Notes under the pieces: model-generated
Told to the model about the DNA's origin: nothing
Database searches by the model: none
Seen by the model: only the letters and a program-made list of their open reading frames with translations
Program-made: the position numbers and the translations under genes
From: Candidatus Multivorans sp.
GTDB taxonomy: Bacteria; Acidobacteriota; Thermoanaerobaculia; Multivoradales; Multivoraceae
Assembly: GCA_965224025.1 (NCBI GenBank)
Contig: OZ245033.1
Location: 2,208,001 to 2,272,000, forward strand
Length of the DNA: 64,000 nt
Direction of reading: 5' to 3'
In this document: piece by piece, positions 53,478 through 62,560 of the stretch
How the letters are laid out: each line of letters opens with the position of its first letter
How positions within the stretch are numbered: the stretch's first letter is position 1

Positions 53478-53891
53478 TCAAGGCCGACATCGGCCTGTTG
53501 CCGAGGTCGACTCGTTCCTCGTAAGAGGCGGTCTGGGGAGGATCCTGGCGACACCGGAATCGATTCGGACGACCCTCTGGAAAGACGCCGCCATCTCCAC
53601 GAAGCAGAAGCCGTTGCCGCCGCCCCTGATCGTGATGACCAGTTCTTCGTTCGGCGGGTCGTCCTCCAGGATCAGTTGCACCACTTCCCGATCTGTCGAG
53701 TCGTACAGTTCGGCCTCGACCAGGGCGGACCGCATGTGCCTCAGATGCGCCCGCAACTGGTGAGTTCCCGCCTCCAGCCCCCGAACCTGAAATCGGCCGT
53801 TCTGGTCGGTGCCGACCGTCCTCCGACTCGGGAAGACGGTCACGCTGGCCAGGGGCGCGGGCTGCCCATCAGGGCCGATCACCGACCCCTC
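53478..53891 (-). pseudogene. 3' part of a carboxypeptidase-regulatory-like (beta-sandwich repeat) gene split by the element
   Basis: EGSVIGPDGQPAPLASVTV...TDQNGRFQVRGLEAG; joins in frame to 60483+ once the insert is removed. Confidence 0.75.
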
Positions 53892-54028
53892 CAACGAGAG
53901 TAGAGAAATTGGAGAAACCCGCAGAGATCTCGTGCGAGAAACGCTGCGCAAATCGGCGACCGAAGGGACGGCGTCAACAGGGTGTTGGCGGTAGCAACGG
54001 GAATTTCGCGGAATCTGGCGGGACGTTT

Positions 54029-54487
54029 CTAGGCCGTGAGGTGCTGAATGATGACGTCGACGATGTCGTCCACGTAGTCGCGCCGCAGGCCGAGGAAGGG
54101 GCGAGCGGGGATCGTGGCCTCGATGCCGCGGCCGAACAGGTTGTCGTGCTCGTGGCCGAACTGATGGGTGGCGGCATAGATGAGGTTGGTGCCGGCGACG
54201 GCCGTAGTAGGGGTCGACAGCTCGGTGAGGCTGCGCAGGTAACCGTCGCGCACAAGTGCCAAGGGGGAGTAGCCCTTGCGGGCCTTACGGGCTGCCGTGG
54301 CCGGCGCGAGCGGCGCCCAAGGCGTGCCGTCGGGGGCGGCCTGGCGCTCGAAACTCTCTTCGGCGCTCTCGCGCAGCAGGGAGGCAACGACTGCCATCGC
54401 GGGCGACAAATCCGAGGCGCGCTGCTGGAGGCGAGCGAGCGCCGAGGAGACCGCGTCGTCGTCGACCGTGATGTCGATCTGGGCCAT
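54029..54487 (-). CDS. Phage virion morphogenesis protein (Mu gpG-like)
   Basis: FERQAAPDGTPWAPL, GTNLIYAATHQFG, IPARPFLG. Confidence 0.9.
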   Translation of the reverse strand: MAQIDITVDDDAVSSALARLQQRASDLSPAMAVVASLLRESAEESFERQAAPDGTPWAPLAPATAARKARKGYSPLALVRDGYLRSLTELSTPTTAVAGTNLIYAATHQFGHEHDNLFGRGIEATIPARPFLGLRRDYVDDIVDVIIQHLTA

Positions 54488-54496
54488 TTCCCGGGT

Positions 54497-54874
54497 TCAG
54501 ACAACTTCGCCGCGGGGCATCGAGATCTCGATCGGCTGAGTCGGTCGGATGCCCTGAAGAGACGGAGGAAGCGCTTCCTGGGGCGGCATCGCATCGTAGG
54601 GCCACAGCAGCCGCAGCAGGTCGGGCGCGCTGTGGCTTACGTCCGACAGGACGTACTTCCATCCGGAGTGAACCCAACTGACTTCTCCGGGCGGTTCGCT
54701 AAAGACCCGGATCGCCACCGACAGACCATCTGTGTATGCCGGCGGATTGCCTTGCTGGTACAGGTCGGCCACGGTGTCGCCGAACGGGTTGCTGAGGGTG
54801 CCGGCCACATCGTCCCAGATGACGGTATAGCTGCTGAGGAGGCGGCGCCCCTTGTAGCGGATGCGGTGCTTCAT
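54497..54874 (-). CDS. Hypothetical protein, candidate immunity protein for the MuF C-terminal domain
   Basis: 125 aa, TGATG-coupled to the MuF stop, lies between MuF and gpG; function inferred from position only. Confidence 0.55.
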   Translation of the reverse strand: MKHRIRYKGRRLLSSYTVIWDDVAGTLSNPFGDTVADLYQQGNPPAYTDGLSVAIRVFSEPPGEVSWVHSGWKYVLSDVSHSAPDLLRLLWPYDAMPPQEALPPSLQGIRPTQPIEISMPRGEVV

Positions 54875-56457
54875 CAGGGGTAATCTACCAGCAGTCCGAC
54901 GAAGAACTCGAAGAAGTCGTAGTCCAGCTCGATCATTAGGTCGAGATAGTCCGTGACGTGCCAGAAACCGCCGCCGACGTCTATCCAGATGCGATCCGGG
55001 TCCGCGAGCGTTTCCAGTGCGGTGGTTGCCACCTCCAGCGGCCTCGAGCGGGCACGGGGATCGATCTGGCCGATCACGGCACCAAAGCGCGATGGGTCCA
55101 CGGGCGATGTGGACCCATCGTACGGCCTGTTGGCGTAGTCGTTGTAGCGCAGATCTCGTCCGCGGCGACGATAGAAGGCGTAGAACAGCCCGTCGAGGTC
55201 CGGGTGCATCTCCTGGATGTGGTGCACGAGTTCATGGAGCAGAGTCCTGTCGGTGGCGCCGCCGACCAACTCGATCGTTTTCGTGGCGCCATTGTAGGAG
55301 CCGAGGGCTTCGCGGTCTGCAGGCATAGCCCTTAGCCGCACGCCCGGCCCTAGATTGGCGCGGCGGATCCAGTTGGCCGGCAGGAGCCGCGAGAGCGCGC
55401 GAATTCGGTCAGCGTGCTCTGATTGGCCTAGCCCCGATTGGAGCGTCCGGATCTCAACGCCGGCCCCCTGCTCCTCGATCAACCGCCGCAGAGCCTGTCT
55501 CCGTGCAGTGCCGCGCTCCAGGAGGAGGTCGCGCTCGAGGGCGTTCCGGCGCCTGTTCTGTTCTCGCGGGTCCGGATGCGCAATCTCGCTGCGGCGGTGC
55601 TGGATCTCGGCGTCGCTCGGGCCGACGGCTCTAATGGTGGCGGCCGGTCTCCGCCCGGCAGCGATCGTTTCGTCGATCGGCAAATCAAATGCTCGCAGCA
55701 TCGAATGGACCGTTTTCTCGCTGGCGGCAATGGTTGGCCTCGGCCGGCGGCCGAATCCGGGGTCGGGAATAAGGGTCTCGCCGTTCGGGGCCTGGTAGCC
55801 CCTCGTCCATGTCTGGCGCGCGCCGAAGTCCTGGTCGACGCGGACGAGGCGGCCCTCGCTGCTCTGCACCTGGAGGCCGCGCCGCCGCACCTGGCGTTCC
55901 GTCAGGGCGCGGACCTTGCACCTGCAGTTGAAGCCGTTGGGCGGGTAATGCGTTTGCCAGATCGGGTCGTCGTGCCGGAAGACGAGGCCATCGAGGGCAG
56001 CGTGAGACGGCCGCGTCCGCGAGTCGTCGATCGCGTCGTACTGCCAGTACGGCAGGGACTCGGCGGACCGTTTCTGCTGCTGGTGCCGGGCCGCGGCGTG
56101 GGCGGTCCGCAGGTTCGTGGCGTAGATCGTCCGCAGTCGGCGTGGACTGCCGAGCTCGATCGTCTTTCCGTCCTTCGTGACACGGCCCCACCAACCCTTC
56201 CTGCGCAGCACGGGTTCGAGGCCCCGACTGAATTGACGGAGGGTCTGCCCCTCGGCAAGCGCCCGGTCGACCGCGCCGCGGATGTCTCCGAGGACGTCGA
56301 ACCCGGCCGATTTCGCCACCGTGAAGGCGAGCGCGTGCGCCTCCTCCCACATGTCGCGCCACGACCAGGTGAGCGCGTACCCCTTGTCGCGGAAATAGGC
56401 GATCGCCGCCTCCGGTGCGAGCCCGACGGCGTGGCCGAGGTTGACCTCCTCGGGCAC
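54874..56457 (-). CDS. Phage head morphogenesis protein MuF (SPP1 gp7/Mu gpF) with C-terminal HExxH extension
   Basis: AFTVAKSAG.D.L.DI, RLRTIYATN, YWQYDAIDDSRTRPSH, YPPNGFNCRC; extension with LLHELVHHIQE and distal LEVAT. Confidence 0.9.
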   Translation of the reverse strand: MPEEVNLGHAVGLAPEAAIAYFRDKGYALTWSWRDMWEEAHALAFTVAKSAGFDVLGDIRGAVDRALAEGQTLRQFSRGLEPVLRRKGWWGRVTKDGKTIELGSPRRLRTIYATNLRTAHAAARHQQQKRSAESLPYWQYDAIDDSRTRPSHAALDGLVFRHDDPIWQTHYPPNGFNCRCKVRALTERQVRRRGLQVQSSEGRLVRVDQDFGARQTWTRGYQAPNGETLIPDPGFGRRPRPTIAASEKTVHSMLRAFDLPIDETIAAGRRPAATIRAVGPSDAEIQHRRSEIAHPDPREQNRRRNALERDLLLERGTARRQALRRLIEEQGAGVEIRTLQSGLGQSEHADRIRALSRLLPANWIRRANLGPGVRLRAMPADREALGSYNGATKTIELVGGATDRTLLHELVHHIQEMHPDLDGLFYAFYRRRGRDLRYNDYANRPYDGSTSPVDPSRFGAVIGQIDPRARSRPLEVATTALETLADPDRIWIDVGGGFWHVTDYLDLMIELDYDFFEFFVGLLVDYP

Positions 56458-56458
56458 G

Positions 56459-57478
56459 TCAGGCGGCGATCGGCAGCCCGCGGTCCAGGGCCGCCCGGAC
56501 CGCCCGGCCGCCGGGGCCGGCACGGTACACGGCGGACAAGTCCAGCAGATCGACAGCGGACTGGTGGATCGCCTCGCCGAGCACGGCCTCGTCGCCCGGC
56601 GTGCGCTGGTGGCGGCCGAGCAGGCGGTACGGTGCCGACATTGAGTCGCCGGCCCGGCAGTCCCAGACAGGCCGGAGAGGGCGGGTGAGCGCGGCCAAAT
56701 CGAGCCCGGCCGCTCGAGCGCGGCGCCACATCCAGGTCAGCGCCCGATCGGAGAGTCCCGTGTCGGCGCGGCCGCCACCGACGTCGCCGTGCACGCCCGG
56801 GAACCAGACCTGCTCCACGACCTGGTCGGCCTGCTCGCCAGCCCACAGACTGGGGGCGAACGGCCGGCGCTGCTCGTCAATCGCGACCGCGTGACAGGCG
56901 TGACGGATGTGGGCGCCGAGGCCGACGTCATGCCAGCGCCAACGCCGGGCGCCGACCCACCGCAGGCCGTCAATCGGCACGCCCAGGGAGCCCACCGTGT
57001 CCCAGACGCCCAGGAAGCGCACGCGGGCCCGCACGGGGCTCACCCTGGCCTCCCACTCTGCGACCTCCTCCGCGCGGCGCCGGCGATAGACGCCCATTGC
57101 TGCCCGGGCAAGCGCGTAGGCCGAGTCCCGCTGCGGCGGAATGCCCAGAAGACCGACCATGCCGGCGAGGCTGCGAGCAGTGTAGGCTCCGCGGCTGTAG
57201 CCGAACAGATAGAGATCGAGTCCAGCGCAGTAGTGCTTGATCAGCCAGTGGTACGCCTCCTCGACGTTGCGGGCCAGCCCGAGGCCGACGACGCCGCCGC
57301 GGAGACGATCGAACCGGCCGGTGCCCACGCCCTCGTCGTAGTAGACGTGCGCCGGCACGAACCGCTCGGCCGCGGCCGCAGCCGAACGGGTCATGGCCAC
57401 GTTGGTGGGGTGTGGCGCGTCGGCCCTGTTCCAGGTGCCGTCGAAGCACATCACGAGATTCACCGACGGGACGCTCAT
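56459..57478 (-). CDS. DUF2235 alpha/beta hydrolase (Tle1-like phospholipase family)
   Basis: CFDGTWN, TNV, YYDEGVGT, GYSRGA, GVWDTV, AIDEQR, WFPGVHGDVGGG. Confidence 0.9.
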   Translation of the reverse strand: MSVPSVNLVMCFDGTWNRADAPHPTNVAMTRSAAAAAERFVPAHVYYDEGVGTGRFDRLRGGVVGLGLARNVEEAYHWLIKHYCAGLDLYLFGYSRGAYTARSLAGMVGLLGIPPQRDSAYALARAAMGVYRRRRAEEVAEWEARVSPVRARVRFLGVWDTVGSLGVPIDGLRWVGARRWRWHDVGLGAHIRHACHAVAIDEQRRPFAPSLWAGEQADQVVEQVWFPGVHGDVGGGRADTGLSDRALTWMWRRARAAGLDLAALTRPLRPVWDCRAGDSMSAPYRLLGRHQRTPGDEAVLGEAIHQSAVDLLDLSAVYRAGPGGRAVRAALDRGLPIAA

Positions 57479-58575
57479 GGTCGGCTCGCTTGGTGGTGGA
57501 CGCCGCCAGCGTCGATCCGCAAGTCGGCGGTCGTTTCATCGAGCCACGGGATCCAAGATCTGCGGCCGCTGTCTCCGTCTACGGCCTCGCACCCGCGGGC
57601 GTCCCACTGGATCCGCGGCGCCCTCGACACTGACCGAAGAGGCGACACGGCCTGGATTGAGATTCCCCGCGAATCGAGCCGTGCCGCGGTCACCGCGCCC
57701 TTCTGCCAGCTCGTGGCCCTGTCGAGCGCCGCGAGGACGAGCCTTCCGCGCCGCTGGATGCGGACTCGCAGGTCGCCCCAGGTGCAGATATGCGACGACA
57801 CGAGCCGCGTCGCGCACCGGCGGACGGCATGCGCCTCGCCGCGGACGACTCGACACAGCCTCTCCTGGACCGGCGAGCTCAAGGGCTGTCCGCTCAGCGC
57901 CAGGACCGTCGCCAGTTGCCGGCCGGAGATCGGCCGATCGTGGGCGGCGGGATCCGTCGGCATCGGGTGCCGGCGCTCCTGCCGCCGGGCCTTGGCGGCC
58001 GCGTGGCGGCGGGCGCCCGGCCATCCGATCAGCAGGCCGAGGAGATCGGTCGCGCCGCTGCTGAGAGCGACCCACCGACTGGCCCTCATCCCAACCGGAC
58101 AGAGGTGCAGGTTGCGGACGCGGGCACGGACCGGCTCGCCGCCGTACTCTCCCGTCCGGACGCCCGGTCTGGACGGCACCGCCAGCATCGCCAGCAAGTC
58201 GCACCAATCGCGGACGGCACGGGACAGAGCCACCCGATCGGCGCCCCGCTCGGCGAGCGCCGCGCCGACAACCAGCGCCGCCAGCACCCGGGCGGTGTAG
58301 GTGGGGCTGTTCCACTCACGGAGCTGCCAGCCCTCGCGCTCGTAGCGGCGGACCCACTCCACCAAGGCCTCCCAGTCACCGAGGCCGGCCAGCAGCACAG
58401 GGCGGAAGTTCATGCTGGTGTCGCGGTCCGTCGTCCGGAGGAGCAGGCCGTCGCGCCGGCGCTGGCCGCGGCGGCGGTCCGAGGCGAACGCCTCGGCCAG
58501 GTCTGGGCGGCCGTTCGCGCGCCAGTAGAGCGCGATATCGCCCAGGTCACGAGGGCCGACCTTAGTCGCCGGCAT
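57475..58575 (-). CDS. Hypothetical protein (366 aa)
   Basis: Fills the gap between portal and DUF2235; ATGA overlap with DUF2235; no recognisable motif. Confidence 0.6.
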   Translation of the reverse strand: MPATKVGPRDLGDIALYWRANGRPDLAEAFASDRRRGQRRRDGLLLRTTDRDTSMNFRPVLLAGLGDWEALVEWVRRYEREGWQLREWNSPTYTARVLAALVVGAALAERGADRVALSRAVRDWCDLLAMLAVPSRPGVRTGEYGGEPVRARVRNLHLCPVGMRASRWVALSSGATDLLGLLIGWPGARRHAAAKARRQERRHPMPTDPAAHDRPISGRQLATVLALSGQPLSSPVQERLCRVVRGEAHAVRRCATRLVSSHICTWGDLRVRIQRRGRLVLAALDRATSWQKGAVTAARLDSRGISIQAVSPLRSVSRAPRIQWDARGCEAVDGDSGRRSWIPWLDETTADLRIDAGGVHHQASRP

Positions 58576-58639
58576 CGGAATCCTCCGGCAGGCCGTGGAT
58601 CGCCACGGCCGCGTTCGCCATCATCTGCGCCTGTTGCAT
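58562..58639 (-). other. 25-codon ORF coupled to the portal stop (possible remnant)
   Basis: TGATG overlap; MQQAQMMANAAVAIHGLPEDSDAGD; overlaps next start. Confidence 0.3.
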
Positions 58640-60189
58640 CAGCGTGATGCCTCCTCGGCCTCCAGCCGGCCCCACACCTGGGCCACGAACAGCACTCGCG
58701 CCAGGCGCTCGGCCAGCTCGCCGACGTCCATCTCCGGCCACACCGAGGCGAGGTCCGAGAGCAGCGCCTCGGGGTCCTCCTGCGCCCGGCGCAGGACAGG
58801 CTCGATCATCGGGGCCGCCATCTCGTCCCAGGCGTCGGCGTCGATCGCCGCCATCACCTGCTCGATCCGGTCGAGCTGCCGCTCCGCCAGGTCCACTTGC
58901 GTGATGTGGCGCGACGGCCGTTGTCGCGCGCTGCCGCGCCGCGACGCAAAGGGACGGTCGGCCCACGCCATCTCGGCGTCGGCGGCGCCGGCCCCGGGAG
59001 ACGTCGGCGGCGCCGGCCGCTCCTCGCCGAGCTCCACGCCGTACGTCTCCTCGACGTAGGCGTCCGACAGGCGCCGCCCGCTGATATCGACGATCAGCTT
59101 GTCCCTTTCCGCCTGCACGAGGAGGTCCGGGTCCTCCTCCTGCACGCGGCGCAGGATCGGCACGGCCGCCCCGGGCCAGTTCCAGTCGACGATCCACCGC
59201 GCGACCTGACTCCGGAACGAGTCGTGGATCAGCCAGGCGTCCGCGGACACGATCTCCTGGCGGACGTCCATGTGGATCTCCGCTTGGGAGCGCGACGAAC
59301 CGTCCTCGGACGTCATTGTCTCCGAGAGCACCACCTGGGTGATCGCGTCGTTCATCCTGCCGTAGAAGGACTCGTAGTCCATCGTGCCGCCGGAGCGCTC
59401 CAGGAGCTCGATCGTCGTCGAGTCCGGGACCACGACGCCGGAGTCCGTGTGCAGCGCCTTCACGGCCTCGAGCAGCTTCGCCTTGTCCGCTTCGCTCGCG
59501 GTGGGCAGGTACCTTCCGACGCCCGTTGGCTGGCCAAACTTCTCCAGCGCCACCAGCCAGAACTCGGTCTGGTGGCGCTTGAACCAGACCGGCCAGTACA
59601 GCGCGTGCCCGAGGCCGCGGCCGTACGGCTCGTCCACGTGATCCGCGCCCGTTGATGTGGTCCAGAACTTCCGGTCCGGCAGGGGCTTGCCCGCGGCGTC
59701 CTTCACCGTGCGCAGCAGCAGCCGCCACCGCGTCGCTCGGCCGCCGTCCTCGGCGCGCCAGGCGAAGCGCCGCCGGTCGCGGGGGAGGATCGCTTCCGGC
59801 ACGACGTGACGGCCGTCGCGCATCCACATGACTTCCGCGACGCCCCATCCATAGAGGGTGGCGTACAGCATCTGGTCCGTGATTGCGTCCCACGGCGACC
59901 CCCCGAGGACCTCCTCGAGCTGCTCGGCCGCCATCTTGTCCCGGCGCGTCTTGCCGCCCGGCAGCACTTGCGTCTCGCGGGCGACCAGCGCCGCACGGCG
60001 CTGCTGGTGCGTCGACCAGACCTTGTCGTCGCGGAGCAGATCCTCGTACAAAATATGGTCCGACCGGCCGCGCTCCCGGAGCACACGGTCCTGCGGCGCC
60101 AGCCACCACAGACCGTCCACCCAGCCGCGGGTGATGTCGCGGCCGCTGGTGACGCGGGCGATCTCGCCCTGGGGCGCCCTGGCCACCAT
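58639..60189 (-). CDS. Mu-like portal protein (DUF935/gp29)
   Basis: YEDLLRDD.V, YGWGVAEVMW, PYGRGL...YWPVWFK, EKFGQP, VLSETMTS, SRSQAEIH. Confidence 0.9.
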   Translation of the reverse strand: MVARAPQGEIARVTSGRDITRGWVDGLWWLAPQDRVLRERGRSDHILYEDLLRDDKVWSTHQQRRAALVARETQVLPGGKTRRDKMAAEQLEEVLGGSPWDAITDQMLYATLYGWGVAEVMWMRDGRHVVPEAILPRDRRRFAWRAEDGGRATRWRLLLRTVKDAAGKPLPDRKFWTTSTGADHVDEPYGRGLGHALYWPVWFKRHQTEFWLVALEKFGQPTGVGRYLPTASEADKAKLLEAVKALHTDSGVVVPDSTTIELLERSGGTMDYESFYGRMNDAITQVVLSETMTSEDGSSRSQAEIHMDVRQEIVSADAWLIHDSFRSQVARWIVDWNWPGAAVPILRRVQEEDPDLLVQAERDKLIVDISGRRLSDAYVEETYGVELGEERPAPPTSPGAGAADAEMAWADRPFASRRGSARQRPSRHITQVDLAERQLDRIEQVMAAIDADAWDEMAAPMIEPVLRRAQEDPEALLSDLASVWPEMDVGELAERLARVLFVAQVWGRLEAEEASR

Positions 60190-60395
60190 CAGGACACCCA
60201 CCCGGCCAGGCCGTCTGCGGCGCCGCGCTGACCGCCGGTGATGAACGACCGGCGCCAGTCCTCGCCCGTGCTGACGCGCCCGCCGGCCGAGTCGGCCGTC
60301 GGCGGCCCGACCGCCTGGTCGGCCGCCTGGCAGCCGAGCGCCAGTGCGACCGCGCTGTCCCCGTGGCGGTCCTTGCCGGCGCCGGGCAGGCGCCG
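60189..60395 (-). pseudogene. C-terminal remnant of a Mu-like terminase large subunit (5' limit approximate)
   Basis: RHGDSAVALALG motif; stop overlaps portal ATG (TGATG), matching terminase-portal order. Confidence 0.6.
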
Positions 60396-60482
60396 ACATC
60401 TTTGCCCAACAGCAGCCCGTTGGCCGTGCCTACGCGGCTGCGCAGGGTTTCTCACACGAGATCGGAGGCCATTTCTCGCGCG

Positions 60483-62560
60483 CCTCTACAGAGATGCCGT
60501 CGTACCGGAAGTCCAGCACGGCCTCGCGGCCTTCCGGCACCGTGACGGACCGAGCATCCTGCCTCCCGCCCGAGAGTGGCGCCCAGATGACTTCCCACTC
60601 GCCGGGGAGCACCGACTTCAGGCGGTAGCGGCCCTCGCCGTCCAGTGTCGCCTTGAGTTCCAGCCTCTGCGTGGACACCAGCTCTTCGGTTCTGGCGAGC
60701 GGACCCGACCCGTACGTGATGCCTCCCTCCGGCAACTGCGTGTCCGCCGCTCGGCGCCATACCAGCAGGCCGTCTCCCGGCTGACCGCCCCTGGTCACCG
60801 ATCCCGTGACCCTTGCGGCGCTGCGGTTGCAGGTGACGACCTCGTCGCCCGCGGCATCCTCTTCGACCTCTTCGCGCACCGGGTCGCCGCCCTCGTACAC
60901 CAGGACGCCGAACGGTTCCTCCGGTACGGCGGTGAAGGAGGCTTTTCCTTCCACCAGGTTCGCTGTGAACCGGTCCTGCGGCGGACCCGTTCTTCCTGAA
61001 TCGAGCACGACCGTCCCTTCGTCGATGTGCGAACGGACCGTAACGCGGCGGCCGCGCGAGAGTTCGACCACGCCGACATCGATTCCCTGGATCGTTGGCG
61101 CCTCCACCTCCAGCTTCCGGGGAGCGAACCCGTCGGCCTGTACCCTGAGCGTCGGCCTTCCCAGCTCAAGGCCGAAGATCTCGAAGTAGCCTTCGGCGTT
61201 CGTTTTAACCGTGGCGACATGGCCCACCACCGACGCCAACAGCGGCCCGAACTCCGAGGGTCGCGTGTAGGAGACGGAGGCTCGCGCCACGGGGCGTAGT
61301 CGTCCTCGTCGAGCACATACTCCCAGACCCATGGGGAGGGCGGCGCCGAGACGACGCCGAGGTTGCGCACCTCTCCCGCCGCGCCTTGTACGTGAAGACG
61401 CAGGAACCCCGTGTTCCCTGCCGTCAACTCCAGGTCGTACGCCCCCGCGGGCAGGTCGAGGGAGAACGCTCCGTCGGCCTCGATGCCAGCGTGCATGCCA
61501 CTCCCATTCGTCTGACTCATTGCATTCACTCGTCCACCCGCCGCGGGAGTGAGGCCGTCCGCCGCGACGAACACACCCTCCACGGAGAAGGCCGGTTCCA
61601 GTTCGACAACCTGTGGTTCCTCGGCGGTCGGTCCGGCCCGCCTGGGCAACTCGAGCTGCATGCGGAGGTAGCCCGTGGCCGAGACGACGATGCCGCGGCC
61701 GAAACCAAGCGACAACCGAATCAGTCCATCTTCGTTGACCTCGGTCCAGCGACCGCCCGCATCCCGAATCCTGGCGCTGGGGATGGCGGCACCGTCCCTC
61801 GAATCGACCACTCGGACCCAGGCGACCTCGGGAGCACGCAAGACGACGGCGCCCGGATCCACGGACCCTTCGAGATCGAGGGTCCGCGAGTAGACCAGGT
61901 CCCCTGCTTCCTCGGTCTGCAGCGAGGCAGGGCCAGCGAAGAAACCACGGATCTCGAAGCGACCATCCGGACCCGTTCGGCCGCGGTGCCGCTGCATCAG
62001 GCCGAAGCCGCTCGGGATGAAGGAGAGGCCTCTGAGCCGTACTCCTCCAACCGGTGCTCCCGCCTCGTCCACGGCCTGGCCGCTCACCGCGAGGCCAGGA
62101 CCGAGTTCGATCGTCGTCGGAGCTTCCCTGAGCCTCGGGAAAGGCGCCGCGGACCGGGAGTCGTGCGAGACGATCACCGCCGAAGGCTCCGTGGTCGGCA
62201 GAGTGAGTGCCACGATGCCCTCGTCGTCCGAAACCTCGAAGCCGAGCAGCTCCGTCGGATACGGGTGTCTCGGCCTGAACAGATTGAAGCGAGAGCCGCC
62301 CAGAGGCGCGCCGTCCGCGGTCACCGCGAACCGGAAGTCGGTCGCCGGCAGCATTGCCAGTTCCACCGAAGCCTGATCGGGGGCGGCGTTCTGCCACGCC
62401 GATGCATGGTCGCCGGCCTGAGCTTGCAGCCGCCAGTCGTCGTCGTGGCGAGGAAGGGACAGAACGGGGGATTCCGTCGTCGTCGTCGTCGGCAGGAGGC
62501 GGCGGGCAACCTCTCGCCACATCTCGGCCGGCGCGGCGGTCACCTGGAACTGACGAGGGG
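60483..62560 (-). pseudogene. 5' part of the split carboxypeptidase-regulatory-like repeat gene (frameshift near G4 61291-61294; start missing)
   Basis: Repeated G.V.D..G.P / TGPDGRFEI / TNAEGYFEI / LDGEGRYRL units across ORFs 60795-62678 and 60430-62520. Confidence 0.7.

Follow-up and report, generated by a model that had tools for sequence, protein, structure and literature searches.

The 64,000-nt window analyzed here (contig OZ245033.1 of Candidatus Multivorans sp., positions 2,208,001 to 2,272,000) contains a 6.6-kb element, designated copy A, inserted in a host gene. Copy A is very probably the relic of a Mu-like transposable siphophage prophage, deleted internally with both of its ends kept. 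A first-pass annotation, made from the sequence alone, had ranked it as the best candidate for an undescribed system in the window; we find instead a prophage relic of modest interest, whose unusual traits belong to the parent lineage. Below, G000 denotes the genome of the window (contig C1), and G007, G009, G021, and G049 are genomes of the same genus. Copies B and C and a fourth remnant, D, are related pieces elsewhere in G000.

We defined the boundaries of copy A by comparing five ends in G000 and uninterrupted copies of the host gene. The element spans 53899-60490 (6592 bp), which replaces the span of 53892-60482 (6591 bp) proposed initially. The CCTC repeats that had been taken as its borders are a coincidence: one (53888-53891) is host DNA, and the other (60483-60486) lies inside the terminal repeat. 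Homology of the ends stops at A-GTAGAG on the side of the gpG gene (all three copies in G000) and at T-GTAGAG on the other side (two of two), giving copy A the 7-bp termini AGTAGAG on the left and TGTAGAG on the right. A 3-bp target duplication, GAG, flanks these termini (53896-53898 and 60491-60493). The earlier statement that the ends are not the TG...CA ends of Mu holds for the left end, which starts with AG, and not for the right end, which starts with TG. Likewise, the duplication is indeed not 5 bp long, but a duplication does exist. Two 5-bp candidates (CGAGA/AGAGA and GGTGT/TGTGT, with four of five positions matching in each) were ruled out, as G007 permits 3 bp only and the base adjacent to the terminus is conserved among copies.

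The gene split by copy A is a multidomain CarboxypepD_reg gene, and open reading frames (ORFs) on both flanks encode CarboxypepD_reg domains. In relatives, the gene is uninterrupted and both flanks are contiguous at all three loci fetched. The site there is empty, reading ..CCCTCGATCGAGATGC.. (CGAGATG), and holds no full prophage with the same ends. Removal of copy A and one GAG restores the host reading frame. The phage entered this gene by transposition, duplicating 3 bp. Near 61293 (61290-61296), the host gene additionally shifts frame relative to an uninterrupted homologue, due either to decay or to a sequence error. The G+C content across the region is 64-75%.

The two ends follow a plan shared by eight aligned ends, taken from copies A, B, and C, G007, and a remnant in G021. 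Each has a 7-bp terminus, NGTWGAG, and GAGAAA boxes at positions 14 and 38, which are conserved in all eight, together with TGYGCA and a CAAC..GTTG inverted repeat about 75-90 bp in. The 25-nt inverted repeat noticed at first is real, with 23 of 25 positions matching, and was the sole pair above 86% complementarity among the 25 longest pairs listed. The repeated GAGAAA boxes are also confirmed. The motif is not enriched overall in the 64-kb window (16 observed, 20.8 expected), but five copies sit no more than 45 bp from a terminus of the element, all facing inward (three on the plus strand and two on the minus strand). These GAGAAA(C) boxes are putative transposase binding sites. The CAAC..GTTG inverted repeat is present at each end as described; it folds only weakly as a hairpin (z of -1.3 to -2.6) and could equally well be bound by a protein as duplex DNA. 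The palindromic core TCTCG-TG-CGAGA, to which the annotation had also drawn attention, is missing from the homologous ends of the full-length G007 relative and is probably incidental. The left terminus is AG in all three copies in G000 and the right terminus TG, and G007 has TG at both ends. The right end of copy A includes 72 bp (60419-60490) identical to the copy B end that follows the tail genes. The ends are not of an unusual type, as had been suggested, but typical multi-site transposable-phage ends, and the one real oddity is the 3-bp duplication.

The genes of copy A all lie on the minus strand in close succession, with neighbors separated or overlapping by 1-63 nt (Table 1). Pfam and PHROG profiles and tblastn upheld the gene list as first read: terminase tail, portal, unknown gene, DUF2235 lipase, MuF-HExxH, small gene, and gpG. 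The reported lack of transposase, integrase, capsid, and tail genes was also borne out, as none of the six ORFs matched such a family, including tail-tube families (Pfam and PHROG). Homology of the portal begins at ~60189 (aa 1-527 of the G007 portal align to 60189-58651), and judging by this alignment, the true start is probably there. The deletion junction lies at ~60369, the point at which copy C, with its 267 remaining terminase codons, ceases to be homologous. A scan for sigma-70-like promoters, which is a weak test, gave none, and the one terminator-like site found is no more than expected by chance. The genes run in the same direction as the interrupted host gene and may be read through from it.

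Related pieces occur elsewhere in the genome. The core of the inverted repeat is present five times in G000, with zero occurrences of the reversed control, and we defined copies A, B, and C by blastn of the region against G000 together with the comparison of ends. Copy B (C1:2368580-2383336, 14.7 kb) has both ends and a perfect GTG/GTG duplication. It runs from a right-type end through a siphovirus tail module reading towards that end to gpG reading towards a left-type end. The tail module is near complete (J-like central fiber, minor tail proteins, tape measure, and major tail protein), and its J-like gene, a single 1703-aa ORF in G007, changes frame. Copy B is thus another derivative, in which gpG is joined to connector and tail genes. 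Copy C (C1:2918218 to ~2924800) is a one-sided truncation: it has a left-type end, a diverged gpG, a MuF-PBECR2 nuclease (1.5e-15), DUF2235, the 366-aa gene, the portal, and its terminase codons, and then enters a host Ig-domain gene without a right end. The portal/366-aa/DUF2235 block recurs in copy C, while the deletion junction of copy A was found nowhere else. Between copies A and C, the DUF2235 and 366-aa genes show no difference (100% identity across 2.1 kb) and the portal is 99.1% identical, but identity is only 70% across the first 200 MuF codons. The different MuF C termini on this near-identical backbone look like replacement of a toxin cassette within one genome. Remnant D, which is more distant (GemA, DUF2235, and tail genes), lies at C1:4995130-5007040 with a mirror image at C1:1-12690; its presence near both ends of C1 reflects either a real inverted duplication or an assembly artifact.

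A full-length, transposase-bearing relative with homologous ends is present in the congener G007. In a strict first look over 41 genomes, a portal search gave at least two relatives with a portal; those of G007 and G009 are 56% identical to the window portal. Compared with G000, the G007 prophage (G007:C10:407430-457294) is an insertion of 49.9 kb, bounded by TGTTGAG..CTCAACA and with the target duplication CTC/CTC. Synteny between the two genomes breaks at C10:407430 and resumes at 457295, which corresponds to a single point in G000 (C1:4277614/5) reading GTC once. Beside the left end, gpG, MuF, DUF2235, portal, and TerL have the same order and direction as in copy A; at a distance of ~17 kb, the tail genes occupy the opposite strand. 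Between the arms are Gp27, TerL, an M15 peptidase, GemA, an AAA (MuB-like) ATPase, and a 533-aa transposase (phrog_310, 4.6e-23), as well as regulators, a Gam-like protein, a sulfatase, Mu protease I, and the major head protein. The transposase matched no Pfam family at E ≤ 0.01, and phmmer against PDB sequences gave only retroviral-integrase cores below threshold (E of 0.06-0.5). In G007, gpG is also separated from the left end by 7 kb of additional genes, including 909-aa and 442-aa ORFs with faint tail-fiber matches. The layout of the lineage is thus a left end that follows the gpG arm and a right end that follows the tail arm. A locus in G021 (G021:C5:276001-277450) is another small remnant of the same lineage: a right end stands alone there, and after it come a small ORF and a gene with 30% identity to the 366-aa protein.

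Copy A is an internal-deletion derivative of such a phage because its left arm, up to the terminase stub, is joined ~120 bp inside the right end. It would be the left arm of the phage, left in place after one internal deletion of ~35 kb. Its endpoints would be terminase codon ~551 and a point ~120 bp inside the right end, and it would have taken out most of the terminase along with the capsid, protease, transposase, and ATPase genes, the lysis and early genes, and the entire tail module. The terminase stub shows that copy A arose by decay, not design. The annotation had offered a doubly deleted prophage with unusual ends as one possibility; the deleted prophage and the retained ends stand, but the deletion is single and the ends are not a new type. 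Nested insertion or self-targeted transposition was ruled out by reasoning as the source of the terminase/right-end junction, because the end abuts the stub with its inner side and not with its terminus.

The functions missing from copy A were largely not found elsewhere in the genome. We searched G000 with 29 ORFs of the G007 prophage region (tblastn, E ≤ 1e-4), and the transposase, MuB-like ATPase, TerS, protease, and capsid were unmatched. The phrog_310 matches in G000 are multi-copy insertion sequence (IS) transposases only, all outside copies A, B, and C; one IS family gave 8 identical matches in 335-aa frames and another gave 7 in 471-aa frames (for example, C1:2562267, 834688, and 212605 and C1:2750493 and 3042924, respectively). 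Terminase is present in G000 as stubs only (57 codons in copy A and 267 in copy C), and these stubs, the frame change in the J-like gene of copy B, and the extra frameshift in the host gene are signs of decay. Because the genome has no cognate transposase, copy A would be immobile at present. A DDE transposase and an AAA+ activator are both present in G007 and both missing from copy A, which is therefore a defective derivative and not an autonomous member.

Several observations weigh against a relic produced by in-place deletion. All six ORFs are intact. The right endpoint of the deletion lies just inside the last recognizable end feature, which is unlikely if deletion is random; its position could reflect selection for a transposable mini-form. 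The actual parent was not found, and the nearest complete relative is ~55% identical in protein. A dN/dS comparison of copies A and C, by which neutral evolution of the genes was to be judged, was uninformative, with no differences in the DUF2235 and 366-aa genes and 16 in the portal. The two copies, 100% identical over the 2.1 kb of the DUF2235 and 366-aa genes, are therefore recent or homogenized. Finally, the Mu-like_Pro profile (PF10123) had no match in G000, but control genomes were silent too, so the absence of the protease is a tblastn result only.

Table 1. Coordinates of copy A, its ends and genes, and the interrupted host gene in the window
Feature	Coordinates	Strand	Basis and remarks
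Host gene 3' part, including left GAG (53896-53898)	53523..53898	-	Pfam CarboxypepD_reg 8e-11; tblastn with uninterrupted homologue = aa 841-966; empty sites
Left (gpG-side) end	53899..53990	+	AGTAGAG terminus; homology with two other G000 copies begins exactly here; 8-end alignment
Left-end contents	53903, 53912, 53936; 53926-53950; 53972-53990		Three inward GAGAAA boxes; repeat arm; CGTCAACA..TGTTGGCG inverted repeat
gpG-like virion morphogenesis/neck protein, 152 aa	54029..54487	-	Phage_tail_S PF05069 6.5e-31; phrog_26 5.8e-36
125-aa orphan ORF, directly downstream of MuF fusion	54497..54874	-	No Pfam or PHROG family
MuF head protein fused to C-terminal HExxH (zincin-like) domain	54874..56523	-	PF04233 3.3e-29, residues 80-204; phrog_220 1.5e-90; start probably near 56457
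DUF2235/Tle1-like alpha/beta-hydrolase, 339 aa	56459..57478	-	PF09994 8.3e-67, profile positions 2-286 of 287
366-aa protein, lineage-restricted family	57475..58575	-	No Pfam or PHROG family; AF2 pLDDT 84
Mu-type portal, open frame of 586 aa	58639..60399	-	Portal_Mu PF06074 9.1e-91; phrog_113 1e-114
Large terminase remnant, last 57 codons	60198..60368	-	tblastn with G007 TerL = aa 552-608
Right (tail-side) end	60396..60490	-	TGTAGAG terminus (reverse complement, ends at 60490); 8-end alignment
Right-end contents	60448, 60472; 60439-60463; 60406-60423		Two inward GAGAAA boxes; repeat arm; CCAAC..GTTGG inverted repeat
Host gene 5' part, including right GAG (60491-60493)	60491..62558	-	tblastn: aa 149-575 in frame -3, aa 574-850 in frame -2; empty sites

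Laboratory mini-Mu elements are moved by a helper, and because both ends and the duplication of copy A are intact, a helper could in principle move it as well. On this account, copy A would be a natural mini-Mu hitchhiker: it retains all cis sites, a full-length helper of the same lineage provides transposition and packaging in trans, and MuF toxin cassettes spread with it. The complete ends and perfect duplication fit such a role, as do the sparing of the whole right-end architecture by the deletion, the occurrence of internal deletions with both ends in two of three copies (A and B), and the MuF C termini that differ between the otherwise identical copies A and C. However, an intact duplication is equally expected after in-place deletion of an inserted full-length phage, no helper transposase was found in G000, and the 60369 junction occurs only once in that genome by blastn. 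Contigs from a second sample contain the DUF2235-to-portal block (56677-60369) almost unchanged and depart from the window sequence at 60369, where copy C diverges; what the contigs of the sequencing runs confirm is limited to the repeat structure and the presence of the portal block in this sample. Exact right-end matches among 42 genomes of the genus are confined to G000, G007, G009, and G021. The right end has no adjoining portal in G007 and G021, and in G009 the right end and portal are on different contigs. Right-end matches with 2 mismatches occurred in the genus at the rate of the reversed-pattern control; one, in G049, lies in a 6-kb insert without a phage gene match. A contig scan with the portal returned distant relatives only (at most 49% identity), too distant to test recurrence of the mini-form. 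On balance, we consider the hitchhiker quite improbable. The satellite-like unit of the first-pass annotation, loading toxins into the heads of a helper, is likewise unsupported, with a unique junction and no mobility, replication, or helper-control genes. A broader proposal combines an undescribed Mu-like siphophage lineage (3-bp-spaced cuts, a tolerated AG left terminus, an early-to-gpG block turned towards the left end, and DUF2235 and the 366-aa protein as virion cargo) with copy A as a helper-movable natural mini-phage shuttling swappable MuF toxin cassettes, and it is unlikely.

Retention by the host is another way to account for six intact ORFs in 6.6 kb next to a host gene with an extra frameshift. 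Copy A would then be a domesticated module serving in toxin/immunity, interference with related phages, or as a lipase, and both the shared direction with the host gene, which makes read-through transcription possible, and the retention of the same block in copy C are in line with this. Yet the identity of A and C (100% over 2.1 kb and 99.1% over the portal) means that intactness may simply be youth, relatives examined have no orthologous copy at the site, and no sigma-70-like promoter was found in what is a weak test; we regard domestication as very doubtful. The scatter of head-entry genes (A and C) and tail modules (B and D) over the chromosome might also suggest a multi-locus gene transfer agent or tailocin-like machine of which copy A is one part. 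That reading is extremely improbable and close to refuted: capsid, protease, and complete terminase were not found in G000, the J-like tail gene of B is frame-shifted, and the pieces bear transposon ends and target duplications like insertions. The decayed, internally deleted prophage thus remains our preferred explanation of copy A.

The cargo of the head module has features of interest in its own right. The C-terminal half of the MuF fusion contains an HELVH motif in translation and has 2 homologues, both MuF fusions. ESM Atlas gave leads for this half at 0.87-0.90 only, one of them a cluster with MuF in 19% of its members, and phmmer of the fusion against PDB sequences found no match. The C-terminal domain varies within the lineage: it is HExxH in copy A and PBECR2 (1.5e-15) in copy C, and the G007 protein (279 aa) has no extension. 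An N-terminal MuF domain is therefore joined to a C terminus that differs between otherwise near-identical loci, as in MuF polymorphic toxins. The 125-aa ORF behind the fusion in copy A may, from its position, be a candidate immunity gene. It had no homologue besides itself among 5.8 billion proteins, and complex prediction with the MuF C-terminal half was uninformative (score of 0.00, with the 125-aa partner folded poorly). In copy C, the MuF gene is followed by a gap of only 120 bp, with no small ORF.

The DUF2235 protein has readable GYSRG, WDTV, and HGDVGGG motifs, which we take to be the hydrolase-family motifs of a DUF2235/Tle1-like protein. Its gene is at the same position in the G007 and G009 prophages; there was no match in 50,697 phage records, and neither it nor the 366-aa protein had a match in 46 distant Mu-like loci. 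A literature search by title or abstract found no report of DUF2235 within the head module of a prophage, which is not proof of none. Another DUF2235 homologue, 53% identical in protein, lies at G000:C1:55048-56145, outside all remnants examined. The family of the 366-aa protein has 9 members, including itself. Foldseek found no relative at E ≤ 0.001 (best, 0.05), and VIA-align reached at best a Z score of 6.6, against alpha/alpha-toroid enzymes, too low to signify more than a shared helical arrangement; neither method gave a convincing structural relative. The DUF2235 and 366-aa proteins appear to be lineage-specific passengers of the head module.

Comparison with known systems places copy A as a defective member of the B3/D3112-type transposable phages. 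Like Mu, B3, and D3112, the lineage has a Mu-type head module (Gp27, TerL, Portal_Mu, MuF, gpG, and protease I), varied insertion sites, a short target duplication, and multi-box ends, and the G007 relative has a DDE transposase with AAA ATPase, Gam, and GemA. Among cultured phages, the portal is closest to those of B3/D3112-type Pseudomonas transposable siphophages (38-50% identity). The lineage differs from them in its duplication, which is 3 bp in all three insertions (GAG in A, GTG in B, and CTC in G007), and in its left end, which is AG rather than TG in three of three copies. One study sets the length of the duplication at 5 bp in Mu and at 6 bp in B3, and it ascribes TG-CA ends to all such phages described until then except its own TA-TA group (PMC8705779). 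A search by title found no transposable phage with a 3-bp duplication in the literature, which again is not proof of none. In addition, the early-to-gpG block of the lineage reads towards the left end and the protease, capsid, and tail genes towards the right end, unlike in those phages; among the 46 distant Mu-like loci, a protease match was present in 30, and it follows the portal on the same strand in all 30. Copy A itself further differs in having no transposase.

MuF fusions with variable C-terminal toxin domains and small ORFs behind them are a described family (Jamet et al. 2017, PMC5576092). Zhang et al. (2012, PMC3482391) note such fusions in prophage remnants that also contain terminase, portal, and capsid genes and predict packing of the toxin in the head. 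Transport of effector domains into phage heads by MuF fusions is therefore an idea already published (PMC5576092, PMC3482391). Copy A resembles this family in its N-terminal MuF domain and variable C terminus, in the position of the gene beside the portal, and in the small ORF behind it, and its MuF-HExxH protein would belong to the known class of fusions packed in the head and delivered with DNA. It differs in being a remnant with no capsid gene and only a terminase stub, which cannot build a head, and copy C differs in having no small ORF behind MuF. The DUF2235 protein resembles the Tle1 phospholipase effectors of type VI secretion systems (PF09994, formerly DUF2235) in its near full-length catalytic domain (8e-67) and its GxSxG-type and HxDVGGG-type motifs. 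In contrast to those effectors, the window gene is located inside a phage head module, between portal and MuF with phage genes as neighbors, and it has no type VI secretion context within the element and no recognized delivery domain. As in phage satellites (P4, PICI, and cf-PICI), copy A is small, carries only some of the head genes, and would need a helper. Unlike satellites, it has no integrase, primase/replicase, or helper-control genes (Pfam and PHROG), its borders are transposon ends and not att sites, its terminase is a truncated stub, and its deletion junction does not recur.

The traits that set this lineage apart, namely the 3-bp duplication, the lipase and orphan in the head module, and the MuF swap, are of possible interest to phage and transposition specialists. 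A 3-bp duplication would imply that the two active sites of the transpososome are spaced differently. The Tle1-type lipase and the conserved orphan between portal and MuF are candidates for head-delivered proteins. In addition, naturally deleted copies with complete ends could serve the genus as mini-transposon tools.

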